A stretch of DNA of 64,000 nucleotides, taken from an uncultured Candidatus Saccharibacteria bacterium. Lineage in GTDB: Bacteria; Patescibacteriota; Doudnabacteria; UBA920; O2-02-FULL-48-8. Where the stretch lies: positions 4,898 through 68,897 of the forward strand of contig CAYOPE010000001.1 in assembly GCA_964405805.1 (NCBI GenBank), read 5' to 3'. A program made the translations under genes and the position numbers. The notes below the pieces were generated by a model. That model saw only the letters and a list, made by a program, of their open reading frames with translations, made no database searches and was not told where the DNA came from. This document shows, one piece after another, positions 35,883 to 58,058 of this stretch; position 1 is the stretch's first letter; each line of letters begins with the position of its first letter.

Positions 35883-35957
35883 AGGGCGGTTAGCTCAGCG
35901 GTAGAGCATTGCATTCACATTGCAGGGGCCACAGGTTCGAATCCTGTACCGCCCACC
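35883..35957 (+). tRNA. tRNA-Val (anticodon CAC as read)
   Basis: 75-nt cloverleaf: acceptor GGGCGGT/ACCGCCC, anticodon stem TTGCA/TGCAG with loop UUCACAU, T-loop TTCGAAT, 3' CCA. Confidence 0.8.
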
Positions 35958-35969
35958 AGGGAAATTTCT

Positions 35970-36599
35970 ATGATTGAACCAGAAAATCAAGATCGAAGTA
36001 ATAATGTTTTTGGAGGCTTTGCCTCAGGATTGCTTTTGCTTTGGGATTTTTTGAAAATTGTGATAATTGCCCTAGTTATCATCGTCCCGATTCGGTACTT
36101 TGTATTCCAGCCTTTCATCGTTTCTGGCTCTTCCATGGAACCCAATTTTCAAAACGGCCAATACCTGATTATCGATGAATTAACTTATAATTTTAAACAG
36201 CCGCAACGAGGACAGGTTGTGGTCATGCATTATCCACGTAACCCGAAAGAATTTTTTATCAAACGAATCGTCGGTTTACCTGGTGAGAAAATTCAGATTG
36301 ATAATGGCAAGGTTACAATTTATAACGATGAACATCCCCAAGGTGTTATCATTAGCGAGCCTTACCTACCAAATCAAGGTTTGACTTTTCCGCAAGATAC
36401 TTCAGTAGTGGGAGGAAATAAAATTTTGACTTTGGGATCGGACGAGTATTTTATGTTAGGCGACAACAGGCTTGCTTCTTCTGACTCCCGGACCTGGGGT
36501 GTTCTGGCGCGAAAGTATATGGTTGGAAGAGTTTGGCTAAGAGTTCTGCCAATTAGTGAATTTGGAGTGTTTAATCATTTACCAGCTTATAGCTTTTAG
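35970..36599 (+). CDS. lepB: Signal peptidase I
   Basis: S26 motifs VSGSSMEPN (Ser box), KRIVGLPGE (Lys box) and GDNRLASSDSR. Confidence 0.85.
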   Translation: MIEPENQDRSNNVFGGFASGLLLLWDFLKIVIIALVIIVPIRYFVFQPFIVSGSSMEPNFQNGQYLIIDELTYNFKQPQRGQVVVMHYPRNPKEFFIKRIVGLPGEKIQIDNGKVTIYNDEHPQGVIISEPYLPNQGLTFPQDTSVVGGNKILTLGSDEYFMLGDNRLASSDSRTWGVLARKYMVGRVWLRVLPISEFGVFNHLPAYSF

Positions 36600-36712: not shown

Positions 36713-38032
36713 TTGCAAAGCAAAATTGCGAAGGTTCGACCAATTACGACAATGGGGCGGCCAAGAAAACTCACACCCACAATTGAAAAGGCGCCACCGA
36801 AATTAGCCGGAGCCAATGATTTACTACCAGAGCACCATCTGTCCTGGGAAGTGTTTTTAGAAAAATTGACTCATACCGCTCATAATTTCGGTTACAGCAA
36901 AATCGAAACTCCGATTTTCGAGGACGCTCGACTGTTTAGCTTCTGGTCACAGGGAAAAGACCAGCTTTTGACCACGCAAGATGCGAAGGGCGGTGCGATT
37001 GCGGCCAAGCCAACCAATATTTTTAGCTTGGTGCGTGCTTATCTCGAGTATCATTTTCCAGAGCGAGAAAAAGTCAGTAAGTGGTATTATCATTCGCCAG
37101 TCAACTGGGTCAGTCCCACGCACGAAATCAAACAAACTGAAGAGTATGGTTTTCAAGTTTTCGGCGCTTTTGCCCCGATCGCTGATGCTCAGATGATCAA
37201 TTTGTTGCAACGTTTATTTTCTGATCTGGGGCTGAAAAATTTGTCTTTAGAAATAAACAACATTGGCTGCATCGAGTGTCAGCCAGCTTATGCTGAGCAG
37301 CTGAAAAATTATTTTAAAGACAAAAAATACGATTTGTGTGAAAATTGTTTGGATTATCTAGAAAACAATCAGCCGCTTCAAATTTTGGCATGCACGAATT
37401 TATCTTGTCATACGGTAGCCTCAGAAGCTCCAACTTTGATTGATTTTTTGTGTGAAAATTGTCGTAAACATTTCATTGGAGTTTTGGAAGGTTTAGATGA
37501 ATTGGGTCTTGTGTACAATTTGAATCCGAAAGTGATCGGTAAACCGTGGTCTCGAAAAACTGTTTTCGAAATCCGATTTCGTGGCGAAACTGGCGATGCG
37601 GTGCTAGGCAGTGGCGGCCATGCGGACGATCTGATTCAAAGTTTGGGAGGACTACCGACTACAGCGCTAGGATTTTCTGGCACGATAGACATGATCATGT
37701 CTTCTTTCGAGCTGGCTAATGTCAAATTTAGTACCAAGCAGCAAGTCGATGTGTTTTTGGTCCCCCTAGGTGACCTAGCTGCGAAAAAAACTCTCAGATT
37801 GTTTACTGAGCTTTGGAATCAGAACATCATGGCTTCAGAATTTTCAGGACCGGGATCGATAAAAACTCAGCTGAAGCTAGCTGAATCGAACAAAGTTAGT
37901 ATTGCTTTGATCATTGGACAAAAAGAAGCACGGGAAGGTACTGTCATCCTCCGTGATGTCCGCTCAGGCATGCAGGAGCTGTTTACTTACGAGCGAATCA
38001 TTGAGGAAGTGAAGAAGCGGCTTGGCAAATAG
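36713..38032 (+). CDS. Histidyl-tRNA synthetase-like paralog with degenerate catalytic motifs and a Cys-rich insertion
   Basis: HisRS-like class II core (GYSKIETPIFE...; motif 3 reduced to GSGGHADDL) and an anticodon-binding-like C-terminus. Motif 2 Arg/Gln residues are absent. Insertion CIEC...CENC...C...C...CENC. The canonical hisS is at 56363. Confidence 0.65.
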   Translation: MQSKIAKVRPITTMGRPRKLTPTIEKAPPKLAGANDLLPEHHLSWEVFLEKLTHTAHNFGYSKIETPIFEDARLFSFWSQGKDQLLTTQDAKGGAIAAKPTNIFSLVRAYLEYHFPEREKVSKWYYHSPVNWVSPTHEIKQTEEYGFQVFGAFAPIADAQMINLLQRLFSDLGLKNLSLEINNIGCIECQPAYAEQLKNYFKDKKYDLCENCLDYLENNQPLQILACTNLSCHTVASEAPTLIDFLCENCRKHFIGVLEGLDELGLVYNLNPKVIGKPWSRKTVFEIRFRGETGDAVLGSGGHADDLIQSLGGLPTTALGFSGTIDMIMSSFELANVKFSTKQQVDVFLVPLGDLAAKKTLRLFTELWNQNIMASEFSGPGSIKTQLKLAESNKVSIALIIGQKEAREGTVILRDVRSGMQELFTYERIIEEVKKRLGK

Positions 38033-38065: not shown

Positions 38066-38314
38066 GTGAGTTTTTTGGTAGAAGTGAAAAGAAAAGAGAA
38101 TGAATCGTTTGAATCCCTGCTTCGGCGCTTTAATCGCAAGATTCAGCAAAGCGGTGTTTTGGTTCGTGCTCGCAAGATCAGATTTTTCGTGCCGAGCAAG
38201 TCTCGAAATCTACTTCGTGAAGATGCGGCTCGTAGAGCTGTCAATCGCGAGAAGCGTGAAGAATTGAAAAAACTCGGCAAGCTGCCGACCAAAACCACAT
38301 TCAGGCGACGCTAG
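38066..38314 (+). CDS. rpsU: 30S ribosomal protein S21
   Basis: ...ENESFESLLRRFNRKIQQSGVLVRARKIRFF...KSR... is the bS21 pattern. Confidence 0.8.
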   Translation: MSFLVEVKRKENESFESLLRRFNRKIQQSGVLVRARKIRFFVPSKSRNLLREDAARRAVNREKREELKKLGKLPTKTTFRRR

Positions 38315-38458: not shown

Positions 38459-38896
38459 ATGCTTTTAGAACAAATTGATCAAGATCTCACGGCTGCTTTG
38501 AAAGCCAAAAATGAAGTTGTAGTCACATCGCTTCGCAATTTGAAGGCTGCGATAAAAAATTTGGAGTTGGAGAAAAATAAACCACTTACTGACGAAGATG
38601 TCTCAGGCGTGATGGCGAAGAAAGTTAAGCAGCACAAAGATTCGATCGAGAGTTTCAAAGCAGGCAATAGGCCTGACTTGGTAGCCATAGAAGAAGCACA
38701 AATGCAAGTACTTGTCGCTTACCTGCCGAAACAAATGGGTGAAGCTGAACTCACGGCGATTGTGAAAGAAGTTATCGCAAGTCTCAGCGCCCAAGCATCT
38801 GATTTCGGCAAAGTCATGAAAGAAGTAGTAGGTAAGGTCAAAGGCCGCGCAGACGGCAATATGATTTCTAAAATCGTCAAAGAAAATTTAAAATAA
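38459..38896 (+). CDS. GatB/YqeY domain protein
   Basis: ...LTAALKAKNEVVVTSLRNLKAAIKN... is the YqeY family pattern. Confidence 0.8.
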   Translation: MLLEQIDQDLTAALKAKNEVVVTSLRNLKAAIKNLELEKNKPLTDEDVSGVMAKKVKQHKDSIESFKAGNRPDLVAIEEAQMQVLVAYLPKQMGEAELTAIVKEVIASLSAQASDFGKVMKEVVGKVKGRADGNMISKIVKENLK

Positions 38897-41469: not shown

Positions 41470-42135
41470 ATGGCCAAACAAAAACCAGGCCAGAGGAGGA
41501 AAATGAAGACTTATAGCAACGTCGTTCTTGTCGATCACCCAGTGGCGCATGATGCGCTACGGATTCTGCGCGACAAGAACACCGAGCCTGCTGCTTTTCG
41601 AGCAGCAGCGATGCGCATCAGCCTGATCCTGGCTGCAGAGGCTCTCCGGGAGGCTCCGACTGAAGAGAGAGTCGTGCAAACCCCGCTGGCGGAAGCAGCT
41701 GCTCAGAGCCTCAAAGACATCGTGGTCGTGCCAGTGTTGCGCGCAGGTCTCGGCATGCTCGACGCCGTCTTGCAGCTGGCGCCAAACGCCCACGTCGGTC
41801 ACATCGGATTGCAGCGAGACGAAGTGACGGCCGTGGCGTCGCAGTACTACCTGAAACTACCGCCAAATCTCGAGAGCTCTCTCGTTCTGCTGGTTGACCC
41901 CATGCTCGCCACCGGCGGCAGCGCTGTGGCAGCAGTTGATCTTCTGAAACTCGCAGGAGCCACGAACATCAGGATGATCTGCATCGTGGCGGCTCCTGAG
42001 GGCATCGCACTCATGACCGAGAAGCATTCGGATGTCACGATCTATACGCCTGCAGTGGACAGTCATCTGAACGACCAAAAGTACATCGTGCCGGGTCTCG
42101 GTGACTTCGGCGACCGACTCTACGGCACATTCTAG
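41470..42135 (+). CDS. upp: Uracil phosphoribosyltransferase (GC-rich island)
   Basis: PVLRAGLGM and VLLVDPMLATGGSAVAAVDLLK PRPP-binding motif, C-terminal YIVPGLGDFGDRLYGT. ~60% GC. Confidence 0.88.
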   Translation: MAKQKPGQRRKMKTYSNVVLVDHPVAHDALRILRDKNTEPAAFRAAAMRISLILAAEALREAPTEERVVQTPLAEAAAQSLKDIVVVPVLRAGLGMLDAVLQLAPNAHVGHIGLQRDEVTAVASQYYLKLPPNLESSLVLLVDPMLATGGSAVAAVDLLKLAGATNIRMICIVAAPEGIALMTEKHSDVTIYTPAVDSHLNDQKYIVPGLGDFGDRLYGTF

Positions 42136-42322
42136 AACTAAAAGCACAAGGGCCGATCAATAGTGGTCGGCTCGAGGAAGTGTGGTTCACAGCAGCCACG
42201 CTTTTCTTTTTGCTTTTTTTCTATTTTATAATTATAGTAACCGCAACGGAAACCTGTCTGCCGACAGGCAGGCGAAAGTTTTCAGGGTGCTATCAGCACC
42301 TTTACAGAAAGGTTGGAGGAAG

Positions 42323-43822
42323 ATGGACAAGCTTAACGCGGTCGAAGTTGGTCAGCATATGGCAAATATTGGCGTCATGGGTGATGCCTGCGGCGGAGTT
42401 CAGATCGACATCGCCGTGGCCTATCGTCAGACGCCGGAAGGACTGGTCGAAGGAACGACATGCGACCATGACTGCACGAACAACGAAGGCTGTGGCAATT
42501 ACGACTGCCCGGCTCACTACAGCGCTCCTGGAAACAGAGGTTTGAAAATCACGAGCATGGCGCCGGCTGATGTCATGCTGGACCGGATCACCAACGCTGT
42601 CTGGGGAGTACGCCGGGCCGTGGAGCGGTTTCTGGAAGTTGATTACCACGGCTTCTGTTACACGTCTGAGATTCGTGACGAAGTCGTGAAAGGTGTGATC
42701 GAGAGCCGGCTGCGCATGGGCAAGGTCATCGTGAATGTCTTTGGCGGCGAGCCGCTTCTCTACCCGCACTTCCTTCAGCTCGAAGGGGCGCTGATGGACC
42801 GCGGTTACACGTTGAACGTCACGACCACGGGGGACAAATGGCTCGATCCGAAGTTCGCCAAGGCCATGGAAGACATCGAGCCCACTGTGCTGGCATTGAG
42901 CCTGGATGATCTGACGATTCCGGAACTCCGGCGCCTCTCGAAGCTCACGCCCGAGCAGATCAAGCAGGAATGGAAAGCTCTCAGGGCGAAAAACCCCAAG
43001 CATGGGCAGGCGCTCAAAGCCCTCGAAGCCGTTTACGTCTTCGCGTACTACAAGGAACGTGGCGGCTATCCCAAGGGCAAGAAGCTCCTGGCCAACGCGG
43101 TGGTCCACAAAGGCAACCTGTCTCACATTCGCGACATGTTCGAGGTCGTGGCTGAAGTCGCTCCGGGGATCGTGTTCAATCCGTACGCAGGTCAGGCTGC
43201 GTTCGACCACGATGAAACAACCGGCCTGCGGCGTCGTGGAGAATTCGGCGCCGACGAAGTCCAGCAGTTCTCGGATTTCGTGGACTGGTCGATTTCGGAA
43301 AGCAAGCGGCCGGATGGTGTGATCGTCAAACGTTTGCCGCACTGGCTCCTGCATCGGGCAGCACTCGATGTTCACGAAGGTAAGACACGGGAGCAGTCCG
43401 ACGCCATCGCTGGGTGGAACTCCTGGCGCTGTCACAATCACGTGGGCGCGGGATTCTTCATGCAAGTCGGTCGATCACCGAAAGTGCGGATACCGAATCA
43501 GCCGCAGGTGATTTCGATTCAGGGCCTGCACGGAAAGACCGGCAGTAACGGCCAAGTCTATCCGGGCGGGCATCTGGGGTGCTTCTGGGATCCGACGACC
43601 GTAACCCAGGACGGACAGTACCACGACCAGATGGAGGTCATGGATTACCTGCACTACGGCATGAAATCTCTCGCGCAGAAGTCTGCTGATCCCTGTCCCG
43701 GATGCCGAATGCCGCGGCTTGACTCACTCCATCTCGTGATCCTCGAGGCAGGGATTCCGACTGACGATCCGACGCTGAAGAACCGGTATCTGAATCTGCG
43801 TCGAGAGCACGCCGGGTTCTAA
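42323..43822 (+). CDS. Hypothetical Cys-rich protein, possibly a divergent radical-SAM-type enzyme
   Basis: ATG after GGAGG. N-terminal cluster CDHDC-x5-C-x4-C, then VNVFGGEPLL (radical-SAM-like glycine motif) and LNVTTTGD ~22 aa later. C-terminal cysteines CPGC. The Cys spacing is not the canonical CX3CX2C. Confidence 0.45.
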   Translation: MDKLNAVEVGQHMANIGVMGDACGGVQIDIAVAYRQTPEGLVEGTTCDHDCTNNEGCGNYDCPAHYSAPGNRGLKITSMAPADVMLDRITNAVWGVRRAVERFLEVDYHGFCYTSEIRDEVVKGVIESRLRMGKVIVNVFGGEPLLYPHFLQLEGALMDRGYTLNVTTTGDKWLDPKFAKAMEDIEPTVLALSLDDLTIPELRRLSKLTPEQIKQEWKALRAKNPKHGQALKALEAVYVFAYYKERGGYPKGKKLLANAVVHKGNLSHIRDMFEVVAEVAPGIVFNPYAGQAAFDHDETTGLRRRGEFGADEVQQFSDFVDWSISESKRPDGVIVKRLPHWLLHRAALDVHEGKTREQSDAIAGWNSWRCHNHVGAGFFMQVGRSPKVRIPNQPQVISIQGLHGKTGSNGQVYPGGHLGCFWDPTTVTQDGQYHDQMEVMDYLHYGMKSLAQKSADPCPGCRMPRLDSLHLVILEAGIPTDDPTLKNRYLNLRREHAGF

Positions 43823-43852
43823 ACGTAAATGGAGGACGGATGAAGAGACTGG

Positions 43853-43890
43853 CGGGTGCGCGTAGCGATTACGCGCCCCGCCTTTTTTCA
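43853..43890 (+). terminator. GC-rich rho-independent terminator
   Basis: ggcgggtgcgcgtagcgattacgcgccccgcc-tttttt. Confidence 0.7.
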
Positions 43891-43958
43891 TTTGCTAGTT
43901 TTTGTTTGTGGACGCTATAATGCATAAGTCAACCGAGACTCCGAGTTGGAGTTCTCAC

Positions 43959-44456
43959 ATCAACGGAGGTTTGCCTATGTGTCCCGAAAGTCTCGCGCAT
44001 CTCGCACGAGGAACGGCCGAGGTCGGTGATCAAGTCGTCGCCAAGGACTTCAAGCACCAGGGCAGCAGTCACACGTTCACGATGTACGCGCGCACGGACA
44101 ACCCGACGTGTCCGGTCTGTCTGCCGAACGGCGCCACGATCTGCTTCAAGGATCCGTCGAGGCGGGTTCGCCGGCTCGCGGAAGTCACAGACGGTCCGGT
44201 CGTGGCCACACTCGCCAACGGCGCGTTCTACGAGAGCACGTTCGCATTCGCGAACGGCGCGACGGCCACGCTGTCGGAGATCCGCGGTGCGGTCTTCAAC
44301 GTCATTCCCGCCATCGCCACGAGCGACGAGATCAACGAGGAGGCGCGGCGCATCTTCACTGAACTCAGCCCGGAACTCGATCCGGTGCTCGCTCAGGCCG
44401 CGGCGACGGCACGCATCGCCCGAACCCAGTCGCGCGGCCAGACGGTCGCGGCGTAG
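43959..44456 (+). CDS. Hypothetical protein (GC-rich island)
   Basis: ATG 8 nt after GGAGG. The alternative frame 44026-44820 is Arg/Ser low-complexity and judged spurious. Confidence 0.5.
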   Translation: MNGGLPMCPESLAHLARGTAEVGDQVVAKDFKHQGSSHTFTMYARTDNPTCPVCLPNGATICFKDPSRRVRRLAEVTDGPVVATLANGAFYESTFAFANGATATLSEIRGAVFNVIPAIATSDEINEEARRIFTELSPELDPVLAQAAATARIARTQSRGQTVAA

Positions 44457-44620
44457 CACGTCGCGTTCGACGCCGACACAACCAAGCGACGCAGGAAGCG
44501 TCGGGGCGGTTCACCACCAGGTGATCCGCTCTTTTCATTTGTCAGAAAATGCATGCGTTTGGTATCCTATAGTATCAAGCGCAGGGCTTGGTAATGTTTT
44601 CAGTCTGAAACGGAGGAGAG

Positions 44621-46102
44621 ATGATCCCAAGATATACGAATTCTCGGATCCAGGCTATCTGGTCGGATCAGAACAAGACCAGGCTCTGGGATTGCAGCGA
44701 ACTCGCTGCGGTCCAGGCTTCGGAAGAGCTTGGCGAATTTCCTGCCGGCGTGTATCAGAAGATTGCCGCATCGCTCGCAGCACATCCTGTGGATCTCGAG
44801 TGGTGGCTTGCGAAAGATAAAGAAATCCATCACGACCTCAATGCCTACCTCGAAGAGCGGCTGCGGTTCATCGTCAAGAACCTACAGATCTACTTTCATC
44901 GCTACATGACCTCGTTCGACACGGAGGAGCCGGCGTTCGGCCGAATGCTTCGTGACTCAGTCGACGTGGTACTCGAAATGTGTGCTGAACTCGATCTGAT
45001 TCTGGCTTCGCTGGCGCGCAGATACCAGTACACGGTCATGATCGGACGCAGTCATCAGCAAGGCGGCGATCTGCAGACTTTCGGCAAAAGGGTCTGCACG
45101 TGGCTACGAGATCTTCGTACTGCCGCCCAGATTCTGGGCGATGTATCGGTCGATCTCAAGTACTCGAAGATGTCAGGGGCCATGGGTAACTATGGTCTGT
45201 TCAAACCAGAAGTCGAGCGCCGAGCACTCGCGATTCTCGGCTTCGAGCCGTACGTCGGTGCCACACAGATTATGCCGCGGGTGCTTTACGTGCCAGTGGC
45301 TGCTGCGCTTTCGGGTTTGGTCTCGACTATTTCGAAAATCGGCAATGACATCCGCCTCGGCGCGCGCAGTCCGAAGCCCATCTGCCAGGAACCGTTCAAG
45401 AAAAAACAGAAGGGTTCGTCGGCCATGCCGCACAAGAAGAATCCGATTCGCTGCGAACAGCTGGAAGGCATGGCCAGGGTTGCCCGTGGCTTCCTATCGA
45501 TGAACGCCGAAAACGTGCAGACTGACGAGGAGCGCGCCATCGAACAGTCCTCAGTGGAACGAATCGCATGGCCGGACCTGTTTCATGTCACTTGTCAGGC
45601 TCTGGATGTGCTGACCCAGGTCACGTCCGGGTTGAAAGTCTATCCCGATAACATGCTCTGGGAACTCGTCCAATCGCGTGGTTGCTACGCGGCGTCACAG
45701 GCCAAAGAAGTCCTAAAGACCATGGGCGAGGAGCTGTGGAATGACGCTGAGGAGCCGTACCGAATAGTCCAACTGGCTGCGTTCAACGTCTTTGAACCCA
45801 GCCAGAAAGCAAAGCGCATGCGCGAATTCCCGGAAACCTCGTTTGCTTTCGCCGAAAATTTCCTGATGGCGCCACACTCGTTCGAAACCGAGTGTGTCAC
45901 CATCCAGGAGGTGATCGTGCGCGGGCGGCTGCGGGTATCTGATGAGCTCGACGCGGACGAAGCAGTGGTGCAGCGCTGGAATCGCATTCTGGATTCGATT
46001 TTCGCGGACGAACGGAATCGCGACCAGTGGACGGAAATTTTTCGTCCAGCAGTACTTCTGGCTCACGAGTCCGCGATCTTCGCAGCGCTCTTGGGCGAGT
46101 AG
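44621..46102 (+). CDS. purB: Adenylosuccinate lyase (fumarate lyase family)
   Basis: N-terminus MIPRYTNSRIQAIWSDQNK... and the fumarate-lyase signature GSSAMPHKKNP. Confidence 0.85.
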   Translation: MIPRYTNSRIQAIWSDQNKTRLWDCSELAAVQASEELGEFPAGVYQKIAASLAAHPVDLEWWLAKDKEIHHDLNAYLEERLRFIVKNLQIYFHRYMTSFDTEEPAFGRMLRDSVDVVLEMCAELDLILASLARRYQYTVMIGRSHQQGGDLQTFGKRVCTWLRDLRTAAQILGDVSVDLKYSKMSGAMGNYGLFKPEVERRALAILGFEPYVGATQIMPRVLYVPVAAALSGLVSTISKIGNDIRLGARSPKPICQEPFKKKQKGSSAMPHKKNPIRCEQLEGMARVARGFLSMNAENVQTDEERAIEQSSVERIAWPDLFHVTCQALDVLTQVTSGLKVYPDNMLWELVQSRGCYAASQAKEVLKTMGEELWNDAEEPYRIVQLAAFNVFEPSQKAKRMREFPETSFAFAENFLMAPHSFETECVTIQEVIVRGRLRVSDELDADEAVVQRWNRILDSIFADERNRDQWTEIFRPAVLLAHESAIFAALLGE

Positions 46103-46201
46103 AATTCGGGTTTTGAGTTCGGGCGGGTTGCGCTTGCAGCCCGCCCTTTTTCTATAGTATGATGTCCTATCTAGTTCCCTTCGTTCTGAGAGGAGGATTG
46201 T

Positions 46202-46798
46202 GTGACCGAAGCTGTGATCTTTGACTGCTGCGAAGTACTCTTAACCGGAGTTAAGGGTTGCTACGAGCAGTTCGGAAAACTGCTCGGAACCGATCCTGCG
46301 ACTGTGAAGTCTCGCCTCATGTGCGACATGGCTATGCGTCTGTTTTCCGGCCAGGCCACAGAAGAGGAGTATTGGACTGATGTCATCCGGCGTTCAGGCT
46401 GGACTCACGATAGTAAAGTCTTGGGCAAGCAGCTGCGCCGAAGCTTTCGAGAGATCCCAGGTACACGCAATCTCATCCGAGCCATGCGACGACAGGGATA
46501 CAAAACCGGTCTGCTTTCAGTGCACGCCCGCGAGTGGGTCGAGTACTGTCAGAGGCGCTTTCGTCATCACTGTCTGTTTGATGTGGTGCACTACTCGTAC
46601 CAGTTCCAACCGTCCAAACCGCATCCAGAATCGTTTGTGAATCTGGCTGCGGCACTGGGCGTCAGTATCACCAACTGCGTGGTCGTGGATGACCGCGCTG
46701 AAAATATCATTGCGGCCAGGACCCTGGGTGCCCAAGGGGTGATTTTCGAAACTGCTGAGCAGACAGAAGCAGAACTGTTTTCCCTGCTCAGACTCTAA
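46202..46798 (+). CDS. HAD-superfamily hydrolase-like protein
   Basis: GTG after GAGGAGG. AVIFDCCEVLL (motif I-like, second Asp replaced) and VVVDDRAENI (motif IV). Confidence 0.55.
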   Translation: MTEAVIFDCCEVLLTGVKGCYEQFGKLLGTDPATVKSRLMCDMAMRLFSGQATEEEYWTDVIRRSGWTHDSKVLGKQLRRSFREIPGTRNLIRAMRRQGYKTGLLSVHAREWVEYCQRRFRHHCLFDVVHYSYQFQPSKPHPESFVNLAAALGVSITNCVVVDDRAENIIAARTLGAQGVIFETAEQTEAELFSLLRL

Positions 46799-46815
46799 CT
46801 GACGAGGAGTGTGAC

Positions 46816-48114
46816 ATGACGACTAAGTTTGTTCGAGGCGAGAAGGTGGCCGAAGGCAAGACCAAGGTGATTTACGCAGACGAGAACGACCCGACCGGCG
46901 CCATCGTCTTTTCCAAGGACGATCTGACAGCCGGCGACGGCAAGCGGCACGAGGTCTTCGATGGCTTCGGCGCACTGTCGAATCTGACGACGATCAACAC
47001 ATTCAGCCTGCTCCGCGCCTGCGGCATCCCGGTGGCGTTTCGCGAGAAGATCGATGACAGGACGCTCTCAGCGGATCTGACAGACATGATTCCGCTCGAA
47101 GTGGTGACGCGTCGCGAGGCGCACGGCTCGTTCCTCAAGCGCCATCCGTACCTGAAGCGCGACCACTACTTCCCGCGCCTCGTCTTCGAGCTGTTCCTGA
47201 AGACATCGGGAAAGAAGTGGAAGGAACACAATCTGCTCTGCGACGATCCTTACATGGACTACACGTCGCGACAGGAGCAGGGTTTGGTCGGGTTGTTCTT
47301 GCCCGATCAGCCCCTCTGGTCGCAGCCTTCACCTATGCATGTGGTGAACAGTTCTGAGATCGAAGGGTTTGAGCGCCTGCAGGAGATCGAGGAGATCACC
47401 AGAAAGGTCACCCTCGTCCTGGACAAGGCGCTGCAGATGGTCGGGATCAGGTTCGCGGACATGAAGATCGAGTTCGGAATCACGAAAGATGGCCGACTCG
47501 TGGTCTCAGACGTGATCGACAGTTCGTCGTGGCGGATCGTGGGACCGGACGGGAAGTACATCGACAAACAGCTGTTTCGAGACGGAGCCGAGGTTCCAGT
47601 CATGGCGCAGGTTTTCGCCCGAGGGCTCGAGATCACAAGCCGGTTTCAGGTGCCACCGAAGCAGCAGATCGTCATCTGGACCGGCTCACCGAAGGACGAG
47701 GTCTCGAAGTTCAAAGAGTGGTTGGAGAGTCATCCTCTGCCAATCCAAGTCGTGTATGTGGCCCTGTCCGCGCACAAGCAGCCTGTCCTGGCCGTTCAGA
47801 AGCTCCAGCAGCTCGTGCAGATGACGCCGGACACAGTGGTGGTGGCGTTCATCGGCCGATCCAACGGCGCCGGCCCCACGCTCTCCGGTGCAGTCAGTGT
47901 GCCTGTCCTGACTGTGCCGGCGGACTTCCAGAAAATGCCGGAAGATGTCTGGTCGAGTTTGCGCACACCGAGTGACGTGCCAGTCTCGACCATGCTGGAA
48001 CCCGGGAATGCCCTGCTTCAGGCGGTCCAGATCTTGGCGATGCGCAATCCGCAGCTATATATGGAGCTGCGTCATCGACAGGAAGATCGCCTGAGCAACT
48101 TCGCGCTGCTGTAG
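46816..48114 (+). CDS. purC: Bifunctional PurC-PurE fusion (SAICAR synthetase N-terminal, AIR carboxylase/PurE-like C-terminal)
   Basis: N-terminal ...GEKVAEGKTKVIYADENDP...VFSKDDLTAGDG... is PurC-like. The C-terminal 150 aa (LSAHKQP, GRSNGAGPTLSG, VPVLTVP, NALLQAVQILA) parallel PurE motifs (SAHRTP, AGGAAHLPG, VPVIGVP). Confidence 0.7.
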   Translation: MTTKFVRGEKVAEGKTKVIYADENDPTGAIVFSKDDLTAGDGKRHEVFDGFGALSNLTTINTFSLLRACGIPVAFREKIDDRTLSADLTDMIPLEVVTRREAHGSFLKRHPYLKRDHYFPRLVFELFLKTSGKKWKEHNLLCDDPYMDYTSRQEQGLVGLFLPDQPLWSQPSPMHVVNSSEIEGFERLQEIEEITRKVTLVLDKALQMVGIRFADMKIEFGITKDGRLVVSDVIDSSSWRIVGPDGKYIDKQLFRDGAEVPVMAQVFARGLEITSRFQVPPKQQIVIWTGSPKDEVSKFKEWLESHPLPIQVVYVALSAHKQPVLAVQKLQQLVQMTPDTVVVAFIGRSNGAGPTLSGAVSVPVLTVPADFQKMPEDVWSSLRTPSDVPVSTMLEPGNALLQAVQILAMRNPQLYMELRHRQEDRLSNFALL

Positions 48115-48204
48115 AGCAGTTCGACGACGGGCGCGCGAAAGTCACGGGCGGGGGCGATTGTTTATCAGGTTCTTCTGAACCTGACAAGCTTCGCTCCCGA
48201 TTTT

Positions 48205-55267: not shown

Positions 55268-55612
55268 ATGGTCAAATTGTCTCGAGTTATGGTGGCTCGT
55301 AGTAAAGATTTAAGATCGAGGCAAACTCAGTGGGAAGAGATTCTCTGGGACCATTTAAGAGCTAATCATTTTGCCGTTAAGTTTAAAAGACAAGTAGTAA
55401 TTGGCGCATATATTTTCGATTTTGGCGCCAAAAGAAAAAAGTTATTGATAGAACTAGATGGAGCCGGGCATCGCGGTAAGGGAAAGATTGCAGATGAAGA
55501 AAAGATAAAATATGCCCTATCAAGAGGTTTTACTGTTCTGAAGTTTTGGAACAGTGAGATTGAAAGATCGCTAGATAAGGTTTTAGAAGAAATTTTTCAA
55601 AAGATACAGTAG
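55268..55612 (+). CDS. DUF559 (Vsr-like endonuclease fold) protein, paralog 1
   Basis: ...FKRQVVIGAYIFDFGAKRKKLLIELDGAGHRGK...GFTVLKFWNSEI matches the DUF559 pattern. Confidence 0.8.
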   Translation: MVKLSRVMVARSKDLRSRQTQWEEILWDHLRANHFAVKFKRQVVIGAYIFDFGAKRKKLLIELDGAGHRGKGKIADEEKIKYALSRGFTVLKFWNSEIERSLDKVLEEIFQKIQ

Positions 55613-56362: not shown

Positions 56363-57601
56363 ATGGCAAAAGAAATACCTCAGGTACTCAAGGGCTTTCG
56401 GGACTATCTGCCGCAGGAGCAGGCTGCTCGAAAGAAAATAATTGCGAAAATCTCTGAAGCTTTCGAGCGTTTCGGGTTTTTGCCTTTGGATACGCCAGCT
56501 CTGGAGCCATACGAATTATTTAAAGGCAAAATCGGCGAAGACGAAAAATTAATTTATAAATTTCAAGATCTCGGTGATCGTGAAGTAGCGTTGCGCTATG
56601 ATTTAACAGTCCCACTAGTGCGCGTGGTTTCTGAGTATCAGGATTTGCCGAAACCGTTTAAACGATACCAGATCGCCAATGTCTGGCGCGCTGACAAACC
56701 ACAAAAGGGAAGATACCGAGAATTCACGCAGTGCGACATAGATATCGTGGGCAGTAACTCGAAAATCGCAGACGCGGAAATCATCGCAGCTATGCTTGCG
56801 GCCTACAATAGTCTGGAGATGGGAAATTTTACTGTAAAAGTCAATGACCGCGAGCTAGTAAATCAGGTTTTAAGTGGGCTTGATGTGCCCAAAGAAAAAG
56901 TGGCTGGGTTTATCCGCATCATGGATAAGGTTGCTAAGATTGGTGAAGAGAAAGCATCAGCTATGCTGGTCGAAGCTGGATTTGAAAAAGAAATTCTGAA
57001 GAAATACTCGGAAGCTTGGGAAAGTTCTAGCAAATCATACTTCGACCAATTGCAAAAGCTACTTAGTGGCATGGGCGTGCCGAATATAGTTTTCGATAAA
57101 TACCTCATGCGCGGACAAGACTACTACACTGGCATCATTTTCGAATTTGAAATGAAAGAAAAACCAGAATTTGGCTCGCTCGGCGGCGGCGGTAGGTATG
57201 ATAAAATGTTTGGTCAGGTCACTGGCACTGACATGCCGGCAGTGGGAGGATCGATCGGCTTTGATCGGATGTTTGCGGCCCTTCAGGAAATGGGAGTGAT
57301 CGCCCCTCAGACTGCTGCTGAAGTGATTGTCTTTAATTTGGATGAAAAATTGACTGCAGAATATCTAAATATCGTAACCAATCTTCGAAACGCAGGAATC
57401 GATACTGAATTTTATTATGATGCCGTGAAAATTGATAAGCAATTTAAATATGCAGAGAGCAAAAACATGCAGGTCGCAGTGATCTTTGGCGAAAAAGAAG
57501 CAGGAATGCGCAAAGTCAACCTGAAAAATTTGCAAGAAAAAGAACAGCGGACCGTGGACATGGATGATTTGGTGACAGAAGTGAAGAGCATGCTCTGGTA
57601 A
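56363..57601 (+). CDS. hisS: Histidine--tRNA ligase (canonical)
   Basis: Motif 1/2/3 intact (...RYDLTVPLVR..., RYQIANVWRADKPQKGRYREFTQCD, GGGGRYD) and an anticodon-binding domain. Confidence 0.95.
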   Translation: MAKEIPQVLKGFRDYLPQEQAARKKIIAKISEAFERFGFLPLDTPALEPYELFKGKIGEDEKLIYKFQDLGDREVALRYDLTVPLVRVVSEYQDLPKPFKRYQIANVWRADKPQKGRYREFTQCDIDIVGSNSKIADAEIIAAMLAAYNSLEMGNFTVKVNDRELVNQVLSGLDVPKEKVAGFIRIMDKVAKIGEEKASAMLVEAGFEKEILKKYSEAWESSSKSYFDQLQKLLSGMGVPNIVFDKYLMRGQDYYTGIIFEFEMKEKPEFGSLGGGGRYDKMFGQVTGTDMPAVGGSIGFDRMFAALQEMGVIAPQTAAEVIVFNLDEKLTAEYLNIVTNLRNAGIDTEFYYDAVKIDKQFKYAESKNMQVAVIFGEKEAGMRKVNLKNLQEKEQRTVDMDDLVTEVKSMLW

Positions 57602-57650: not shown

Positions 57651-58058
57651 ATGCATCGTACAATAGGTTTTCGAAAAACTATCCCGATCAGAAGACAGCT
57701 CCGCAGAAACCTCACTGCTCCTGAAAAAGTATTCTGGGAACAAATTGCAAACCGACAGTTTCAAGACCTAAAGTTTGTAAAACAACATGGTATCGGTCCC
57801 TATATCGTAGACTTTTGTTGCCGAGCTTTAATGCTGATTATAGAAATAGATGGCGATAGTCATGCTACAAACTTTGGGATATCTCAAGACAAAGTCAGAA
57901 CCGGATATTTAGAAAACCTAGGCTACAAGATTATTCGCTATAATAACCACGATGTCATCAATAACCTCGATGGAGTGTTCCAAGATCTGAAAAGCAAAAC
58001 CGACCTCCTCTTAATCTCCTCCTTAAAAGGAGGAGAGATAACTGCGCGGGAGTCCTAA
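57651..58058 (+). CDS. DUF559 (Vsr-like endonuclease fold) protein, paralog 2
   Basis: ...KFVKQHGIGPYIVDFCCRALMLIIEIDGDSH...GYKIIRYNNHDV. The C-terminal 14 codons translate the 42-nt repeat (58004-58045). Confidence 0.8.
   Translation: MHRTIGFRKTIPIRRQLRRNLTAPEKVFWEQIANRQFQDLKFVKQHGIGPYIVDFCCRALMLIIEIDGDSHATNFGISQDKVRTGYLENLGYKIIRYNNHDVINNLDGVFQDLKSKTDLLLISSLKGGEITARES

Follow-up and report, generated by a model that had tools for sequence, protein, structure and literature searches.

The histidyl-tRNA synthetase (HisRS) of Thermus thermophilus reads the GUG anticodon of tRNA-His through E388 (for G34), Q404 (for U35) and K397 (for G36; PMC4357726; PMC11363354), and its K209, the lysine of the motif NPLR.LD.K, contacts the acceptor stem at C72 (PMC4357726). 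Among proteins derived from the aminoacyl-tRNA synthetases (aaRS), HisZ regulates HisG and mediates histidine feedback, and it is the sole HisRS-like protein listed in a 2022 review of aaRS duplications (PMC9437257). Other aaRS pseudo-enzymes include SLIMP and the dead half of the double-length TyrRS of trypanosomatids, which still recognises the anticodon (PMC5370408; PMC9437257). Here we describe a further protein of this kind, of which no description was found in the published literature. It is encoded in a 64,000-nt stretch of a Candidatus Doudnabacteria contig (CAYOPE010000001.1), the whole of which is referred to below as the window. The gene, here called pseudo-hisS, occupies the ancestral hisS position of the candidate phyla radiation (CPR) and is under strong purifying selection, and its product, pseudo-HisRS, lacks the catalytic residues of HisRS. 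A second gene in the window encodes a complete HisRS of a different lineage (type 2).

Architecture and loss of the catalytic residues

The longest open reading frame (ORF) at the locus, 36713–38032 on the forward strand, is intact and opens with TTG at 36713. An earlier reading made from the sequence alone (hereafter the sequence-only reading) had taken this whole frame as the gene. The intact ORF stands, but the start moves: translation almost certainly begins at ATG 36752, because the homologues are 425–426 aa long and 104 homologues of 420–430 aa open with MGRP[KR]K. Residue numbers below are counted from this ATG. Pfam detects PF13393 (tRNA-synt_His, 63 bits) and PF03129 (HGTP_anticodon, 45 bits) in the protein, E. 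coli HisRS (1KMM) is matched along its full length (phmmer, E = 7e-48), and the domain order is that of HisRS, namely a class II core, an insertion domain and an HGTP anticodon-binding domain (ABD). When an AlphaFold2 model (predicted local distance difference test score, pLDDT, 76) was searched with Foldseek, the top 21 matches were all bacterial HisRS, the HisRS-like domain of GCN2 (9BF3) ranked 31st, and HisZ structures were absent among the top 50. The class II fold and anticodon-binding-like C-terminus proposed at the outset are borne out by these results. The NCBIfam hisS model TIGR00442 scores 220.7 bits, under its cut-off of 286.75, and the HisZ model TIGR00443 scores 59.3 bits against a cut-off of 271.65, over residues 36–189 only.

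Alignment with E. coli HisRS locates the losses. The stretch FRHERPQKGRYRQF is replaced by VNWVSPTH-EIKQT (taken further, FRHERPQKGRYRQFHQ by VNWVSPTH-EIKQTEE), LRPEGTA of HisA by AKPTNIF, RGLDYY of HisB by GKPWS, and GGRYDGL of motif 3 by GGHADDL (GGGRYD to SGGHAD). We scored 11 key positions (E. coli numbering: E83, R113, E115, R121, E131, R259, Y263, Y264, R311, Y312 and D313), of which D313 alone is kept; all 11 are kept in the second hisS gene of the window and in functional CPR enzymes. The class II arginines are gone, R113 and R121 having given way to a gap or a non-basic residue and R311 to His, and the histidine-binding residues of HisA and HisB (E83, T85, R259, Y263 and Y264) have been replaced. 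Across 30 degenerate and 64 canonical proteins, 31 positions kept in at least 85% of functional HisRS were lost, including the insertion-domain motif NPLR.LD.K (equivalents of R210, D213 and K215). The motif 2 loop varies inside the family.

On these residues, pseudo-HisRS is predicted to be catalytically dead and not to possess an alternative active site. The degeneracy that the sequence-only reading had noted, with motif 2 arginines absent and GSGGHADDL in place of GGGRYD, was thus confirmed, together with a family score under the cut-off, and careful alignment recovered no conserved motif residues that would make this a second functional HisRS. The complete architecture and high conservation could nonetheless suit a still-active HisRS, or a synthetase for another substrate, with an unorthodox active site. 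We consider such an enzyme very improbable, since none of the motif 2 and motif 3 arginines, of R259 (specific to HisRS) or of the residues that bind histidine has been kept, the motif 2 loop is not constant across the family, and the pocket differs between the degenerate types (I–IV) described below.

Eight cysteines are conserved in the family (C173, C176, C196, C199, C214, C219, C234 and C237; CxxC...CxxC...Cx4C...CxxC) and probably form two structural Zn sites. They had initially been described as a multi-cysteine insertion added to the protein. That description did not hold, as the region aligns to the ordinary insertion domain of E. coli HisRS with a single-residue gap only, and all eight cysteines are found in 40 of the 63 catalytically canonical relatives closest to the query (at least seven in 52 of the 63). 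The same pattern is seen in the functional HisRS of four other CPR loci (L029, L031, L032 and L047). The structurally solved E. coli HisRS has a Cys at one only of the eight positions. Because the eight-Cys form is the majority state in the closest functional bacterial HisRS, yet just one of the eight occurs in E. coli, this putatively Zn-binding version of the insertion domain may be structurally uncharacterised.

A basic N-terminal extension, also remarked on from the sequence alone, is indeed present as a MGRPRK... tail, but it is not a novelty, as functional CPR HisRS carry basic tails as well. Tails of at least 15 aa occur in 23 of the 63 functional relatives, and 20 of those 23 have a net charge of at least +3. 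The tails of functional CPR enzymes are variable in sequence, however, and the exact 15-mer is specific to the family: the motif MGRP[KR]K[IL]TPx[VI]EKAP is present in 104 family members, with M1, G2, R3, P4, K6, P9, E12, K13 and P15 invariant, and is confined to degenerate types I and III. In the AlphaFold2 model, pLDDT is below 50 for residues 1–14. AT-hooks have a GRP core with K/R flanks; M-GRP-[KR]K matches this core but is without the preceding Arg of the canonical R-GRP. Judged from these alignments, both the cysteine cluster and the basic tail are inherited from functional HisRS of CPR and other bacteria.

Ancestry, selection and the working enzyme

A tblastn search of 47 loci with the neighbouring proteins of the window revealed one common order, (pth-der-LCP), lepB, hisS slot, (rpsU), yqeY, ftsA and ftsZ. 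In Yanofskybacteria, Wolfebacteria and other CPR bacteria the slot holds a functional bacterial-type hisS, and in Doudnabacteria and their relatives the same slot holds every degenerate version. Pseudo-HisRS is therefore the positional orthologue of the ancestral, vertically inherited bacterial-type hisS and not an extra copy, as the slot is common to functional CPR hisS. The sequence-only reading had called it the second, paralogous HisRS of the window; synteny reverses this, with pseudo-hisS being the ancestral gene and the other hisS the one from another lineage. A functional link to ftsA and ftsZ, or to rpsU and yqeY, was considered and rejected, because the same neighbours flank functional hisS in other CPR bacteria.

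Several further observations concern this slot. In nearly all Doudnabacteria loci (~20), a tRNA-Val(CAC) gene separates the LCP gene from lepB and belongs to the conserved upstream block. At one locus (L040:6001–7230) a partly degenerate HisRS-like gene occupies the slot between lepB and rpsU-yqeY. It is one of some 30 or more partly degenerate HisRS-like representatives (e.g., P0126, P0130, P0137 and P0140) that keep GGR[YH]D and have lost the motif 2 arginine(s) and RGLDYY; these may be the only HisRS of their genomes or additional pseudo-enzymes. In a functional-type hisS at another locus (L029:5896–7263), an in-frame TGA coincides exactly with the conserved motif 2 Gly (QF-G-xE), and the ORFs of this locus, on a contig labelled "Parcubacteria group," are markedly longer under table 25 (UGA = Gly). 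The contig is probably from a lineage in which UGA encodes Gly.

Position also bears on a possible role as HisZ, the regulatory subunit of short-form ATP phosphoribosyltransferase. HisZ is likewise a non-catalytic HisRS homologue, and NCBI names some homologues of pseudo-HisRS "ATP phosphoribosyltransferase regulatory subunit." We regard this identity as highly improbable for a gene that is the positional orthologue of hisS. Its product scores 59 bits on TIGR00443 where 272 are required, has no HisZ among its top 50 fold matches, contains a full ABD and no longer has the histidine-binding residues needed for feedback. None of the six frames of the window contains the HisG signature, no HisG Pfam domain occurs in the annotated neighbourhoods, and no hisG was found in the window or in ~50 related loci. 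The initial statements that hisG is not nearby and that the usual HisZ role is unsupported are thus upheld, within the window and in the related loci examined. CPR bacteria are in general without amino-acid biosynthesis, which also counts against HisZ.

The second hisS gene of the window encodes a type-2 (archaeal/eukaryal-like) HisRS that scores 389.4 bits on TIGR00442, above the cut-off of 286.75, and carries LRYDLTVP and RGQDYYTG. Its best matches in the PDB are the HisRS of Elizabethkingia, human, Nostoc and Thermoplasma, and its context is conserved as DUF4430-DUF6580-DUF167-hisS-DUF559-comEC. From its residues, this is the enzyme expected to charge tRNA-His in this genome. The gene had been named the canonical hisS, which is right as to its residues and score; it belongs, however, to a different (type-2) HisRS lineage and stands at another locus. 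ORFs of the DUF559 family (Vsr-like endonuclease fold) at 55268–55612 and 57651–58058 flank the segment with the type-2 hisS, and a DUF559 gene is also found downstream of hisS at two other loci (L049 and L050); the pair could be a trace of mobility or merely a common CPR gene.

Pseudo-HisRS and type-2 HisRS occur on one contig in at least 20 Doudnabacteria assemblies, and are 12–18 kb apart where both have been located, for instance on CAZSDS010000001.1 (pseudo-hisS at 579,443–580,723, functional hisS at ~566.5–567.8 kb) and on ENA k141_428035 (130,750–132,033 and 146,324–147,565, respectively). Eighteen further pairs were assigned by the identical nucleotide size of the contig, 17 of them between the match lists and one (the 327,498-nt contig) via locus L019, where the list for type-2 HisRS comprised the top 120 matches, down to 59% identity. 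For 18 of the 20 pairs matched by contig, the dead copy resembles its counterpart in the window as closely as the working HisRS does, or more closely; on a 478,967-nt contig, the values are 79% for pseudo-HisRS and 67% for working HisRS. The type-2 enzyme would have displaced the old bacterial-type gene from its catalytic role, in an order of events that we infer. Two contigs of 32,754 and 46,849 nt (P0113/P0271 and P0118/P0273) show the reverse of the other 18 pairs: they have the functional hisS closest to that of the window (79% and 75%) and a pseudo-hisS that is just 64% and 63% identical. Recombination or transfer of one of the genes among Doudnabacteria could account for these pairs, as could a coincidental match in size.

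Pseudo-HisRS is under strong purifying selection, which is strongest in the ABD. The core family (type I) comprises more than 120 clusters at 62–83% identity, in which every ORF is intact and ~426 aa long. Nonsynonymous divergence (dN) was computed against eight homologous loci; synonymous sites were saturated, so the comparison yields dN and an upper bound on omega only. Overall dN is 0.16–0.27, and by region it is 0.24–0.39 in the catalytic-like core, 0.10–0.22 in the insertion domain and 0.04–0.11 in the ABD. Conservation of pseudo-HisRS in the same loci roughly equals that of der and pth and exceeds that of lepB, LCP and yqeY. We regard it as exceedingly improbable that the gene is a slowly decaying relic without function, in spite of its lost catalysis, the presence of a replacement enzyme and one Doudnabacteria locus (L044) at which the gene is split across frames. 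The ORF is intact in over 120 clusters, synonymous divergence is saturated where dN is 0.16–0.27, conservation matches that of der and pth, and the gene is kept in genomes whose largest contigs here are 0.8–1 Mb. The L044 gene (6001–7226, in a metagenome-assembled genome) has many stops in each frame, which would reflect either misassembly or a true pseudogene. CPR genomes are among the smallest known, and retention in so small a genome of a 426-residue dead enzyme, conserved like a working HisRS, implies an important non-catalytic job.

Three other degenerate types occur at the same locus: type II (GGNYSxW, HELGxF), type III (EGGYHDGL) and type IV (GGRKNLY). The sequence-only reading had proposed that the phylogenetic distribution of the gene be examined, and it now extends to the type I clusters and these divergent types in Doudnabacteria and relatives. 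Types I–IV have in common derived residues that functional enzymes seldom carry (W111, E131, A393, M407, F411 and the C-terminal G425), which supports a common origin. Their pockets differ (GGHADD, GGNYS, GGYHD and GGRKN). The window protein is 57–61% identical to types II–IV in the ABD and 22–30% in the catalytic core, against ~50% in ABD and core alike when compared with functional CPR HisRS, and its ABD is 96% identical to that of the nearest 50%-cluster representative. Pfam still detects the ABD of type II proteins but no longer their catalytic domain.

Possible roles of pseudo-HisRS

The three T. thermophilus side chains that read the anticodon, E388, K397 and Q404, correspond to E392, R401 and Q408 of pseudo-HisRS, at spacings (9 and 7) identical to those of the E. 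coli and T. thermophilus enzymes. The family shows no variation at any of the three, which also have equivalents in types II–IV and in functional CPR enzymes. A basic pair near the start of the ABD (K345/K346) is also retained. As the ABD is the most conserved part of the protein and the GUG-reading side chains are kept, binding to the anticodon of tRNA-His appears the likeliest function, and retention of motif 1 suggests a dimer. We therefore hold, with moderate confidence, that pseudo-HisRS most likely works without catalysis, probably as a dimer, by binding tRNA-His at its GUG anticodon loop. The data agree with one of the options raised by the sequence-only reading, that of a pseudo-synthetase or a tRNA-binding factor.

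In the history that we favour, the bacterial-type hisS of Candidatus Doudnabacteria would have been inherited vertically until a type-2 HisRS took over histidylation, after which the old gene would have lost the residues that bind ATP, histidine and the acceptor end. The dead HisRS would then have been kept over the long term by purifying selection, with its scaffold, including motif 1, still permitting a probable dimer. Also kept would be the cysteine-rich, presumably Zn-binding insertion domain and the short invariant basic peptide at the N-terminus. The ABD, through the side chains for G34, U35 and G36, may bind the anticodon loop of tRNA-His, and the protein could act as a tRNA-His-specific binder, sensor, sequestering factor or regulator in place of an enzyme.

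Several points weigh against this interpretation. Both the NPLR.LD.K clamp on the acceptor stem and the motif 2 loop have been lost, which makes the full HisRS-like mode of tRNA binding unlikely; with the ABD as sole contact, affinity may be low. The anticodon is just a weak identity element in E. coli and T. thermophilus (PMC4357726). Conservation of the ABD could reflect a protein–protein interface instead, and the invariant N-terminal 15-mer resembles a specific docking peptide, which hints at a further partner. No tRNA-His gene was found in the window or in 32 related loci, and neither an anticodon-mimic element nor a leader RNA was found near either hisS gene. Finally, co-occurrence with type-2 HisRS was established for the type I family only; none of the contig sizes of type II proteins is among the top 120 matches listed for type-2 HisRS, which reach down to 59% identity.

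The retained ABD and its GUG-reading residues could also serve an RNA-binding translational regulator, in which the ABD binds an anticodon-like stem-loop in mRNA and tunes hisS or neighbouring genes according to the level of tRNA-His. E. coli ThrRS binds an operator in its own mRNA, and pseudo-hisS lies inside a co-directional cluster with rpsU, yqeY, ftsA and ftsZ. For HisRS itself, binding to an anticodon mimic in its own mRNA, that of yeast HTS1, is reported (PMC6542539). Such a regulator nevertheless seems quite unlikely here, as no leader is conserved, the spacer between lepB and pseudo-hisS is down to 8–12 nt in some genomes (L008 and L018), and the leader of the functional hisS is ~60 nt, following a terminator. 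The region upstream of the functional hisS contains a DUF167-like ORF, a small ORF and that terminator. A T-box or other leader RNA was looked for as a separate candidate and set aside: Rfam returned tRNA-Val only upstream of pseudo-hisS and nothing significant upstream of the functional hisS.

The N-terminal peptide and the pocket bear on a different proposal, namely that pseudo-HisRS serves a protein or DNA partner, with no connection to tRNA, as its scaffold or regulatory subunit, in the manner of HisZ on HisG or of the aaRS-like accessory subunit of mitochondrial DNA polymerase gamma, with the N-terminal peptide as a docking or DNA-binding element. The invariant 15-mer, with its AT-hook-like GRP core, is far more specific than a generic basic tail, and within type I many residues of the pocket do not vary (W111, Y113, Q135, W266, H290 and D292). 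The pocket residues differ between the orthologous types I–IV, however, and the N-terminal motif occurs in types I and III only, whereas the ABD with its anticodon contacts is common to all types. No partner gene is conserved alongside beyond the inherited housekeeping synteny. We consider this scaffold role unlikely.

A more far-reaching form of the favoured interpretation, binding of the tRNA-His anticodon, can be put forward tentatively. The displaced HisRS might have become an essential, stand-alone and tRNA-His-specific anticodon reader, which senses or buffers tRNA-His or docks it to a partner via the N-terminal peptide, as a bacterial counterpart of the HisRS-like domain of Gcn2 that keeps its codon-family specificity. 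Types I–IV and the partly degenerate forms would then represent a recurrent and unrecognised component of CPR translation. We think this possible but on balance improbable.

The locus in context: features, annotation and comparison with known systems

The features of the locus are listed in Table 1. Elsewhere in the window, positions 42000–48200 form a GC-rich island (GC content 0.56–0.58, compared with ~0.45 elsewhere) with genes for a radical-SAM protein, an adenylosuccinate-lyase-like protein (Lyase_1), a HAD hydrolase and a fused SAICAR synthetase-AIR carboxylase (purC-purE), as well as an unassigned ORF. It looks like a horizontally acquired block of purine metabolism in a CPR genome.

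Table 1. Coordinates of pseudo-hisS, its predicted domains, its neighbours and the working hisS in the window.
Feature	Position	Strand	Basis or remark
tRNA-Val(CAC)	35884–35958		Between LCP gene and lepB
lepB (signal peptidase I), conserved upstream neighbour of hisS slot	35970–36599	+	Peptidase_S26 in homologous loci, synteny
Pseudo-HisRS coding sequence (426 aa and stop), bacterial-type HisRS orthologue without catalytic residues	36752–38032	+	ORF, Pfam, TIGR00442, homologues, Foldseek
N-terminal basic tail (residues 1–19), AT-hook-like core MGRPRK, predicted disordered (AlphaFold2)	36752–36808	+	Motif, model
N-terminal part of catalytic-like domain (residues 20–165); motif 1 kept, HisA and motif 2 degenerate	36809–37246	+	Alignments
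HisRS insertion domain (residues 166–255); eight conserved Cys, NPLR.LD.K lost	37247–37516	+	Alignment to E. coli
C-terminal part of catalytic-like domain (residues 256–330); HisB and motif 3 degenerate	37517–37741	+	Alignments
Class IIa ABD (residues 331–426)	37742–38029	+	Pfam HGTP_anticodon, conservation
rpsU (S21)	38066–38314	+	Conserved downstream neighbour
yqeY	38459–38896	+	Conserved downstream neighbour, then ftsA, ftsZ
Functional type-2 (archaeal/eukaryal-like) HisRS	56363–57601	+	TIGR00442 389.4 bits, 11/11 key residues

Public annotation of pseudo-HisRS is inconsistent, ranging over "histidyl-tRNA synthetase," "HisS family protein," "ATP phosphoribosyltransferase regulatory subunit" and "hypothetical protein," and automated pipelines could mistake it for a functioning HisRS or for a sign that histidine is made. 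Pseudo-enzymes derived from aaRS are already known as a kind, of which pseudo-HisRS is one more variant. It offers a clean natural case in which a synthetase was apparently displaced by an enzyme of a different type and the displaced orthologue repurposed, with selection pointing to the anticodon-reading module. It may also serve as a simple bacterial model for how aaRS scaffolds turn into tRNA-specific binders or regulators, with specificity apparently kept, unlike in Gcn2.

Bacterial-type HisRS (TIGR00442; E. coli 1KMM and T. thermophilus 4RDX) is the nearest known relative, with the same domain order, a full-length alignment and the best fold matches, as well as the same genomic slot in CPR bacteria, an insertion domain with the same eight Cys, and an ABD that reads GUG with the same residues. 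Pseudo-HisRS differs in being without the catalytic and histidine-binding residues and the acceptor clamp, in falling under the family cut-off and in coexisting with a separate HisRS. HisZ (TIGR00443) is likewise a bacterial, non-catalytic HisRS homologue kept for a non-translational role. In most cases HisZ has no functional ABD and its gene accompanies hisG, whereas in pseudo-HisRS conservation is highest in the ABD, the residues that bind histidine have been lost, and no hisG occurs in the loci examined. As in SLIMP and the dead half of the trypanosomatid TyrRS, a synthetase copy has lost catalysis yet been kept, but pseudo-HisRS is the ancestral orthologue and not a new duplicate, and is not fused to an active enzyme. 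Since pseudo-HisRS and the active HisRS are of different lineages, heterodimerisation between them is doubtful.

The HisRS-like domain of the eIF2-alpha kinase Gcn2 also mimics HisRS with its ABD, is without the adenylate-forming elements, and has a non-catalytic role in tRNA binding and regulation (PMC11363354). It is fused to a kinase and has eukaryotic HisRS as its counterpart, whereas pseudo-HisRS is a stand-alone bacterial protein of 426 aa that derives from bacterial-type HisRS. The ABD of Gcn2 has lost the decoding side chains (equivalents of E388, K397 and Q404) and binds tRNAs non-specifically (PMC11363354), while pseudo-HisRS keeps all three.

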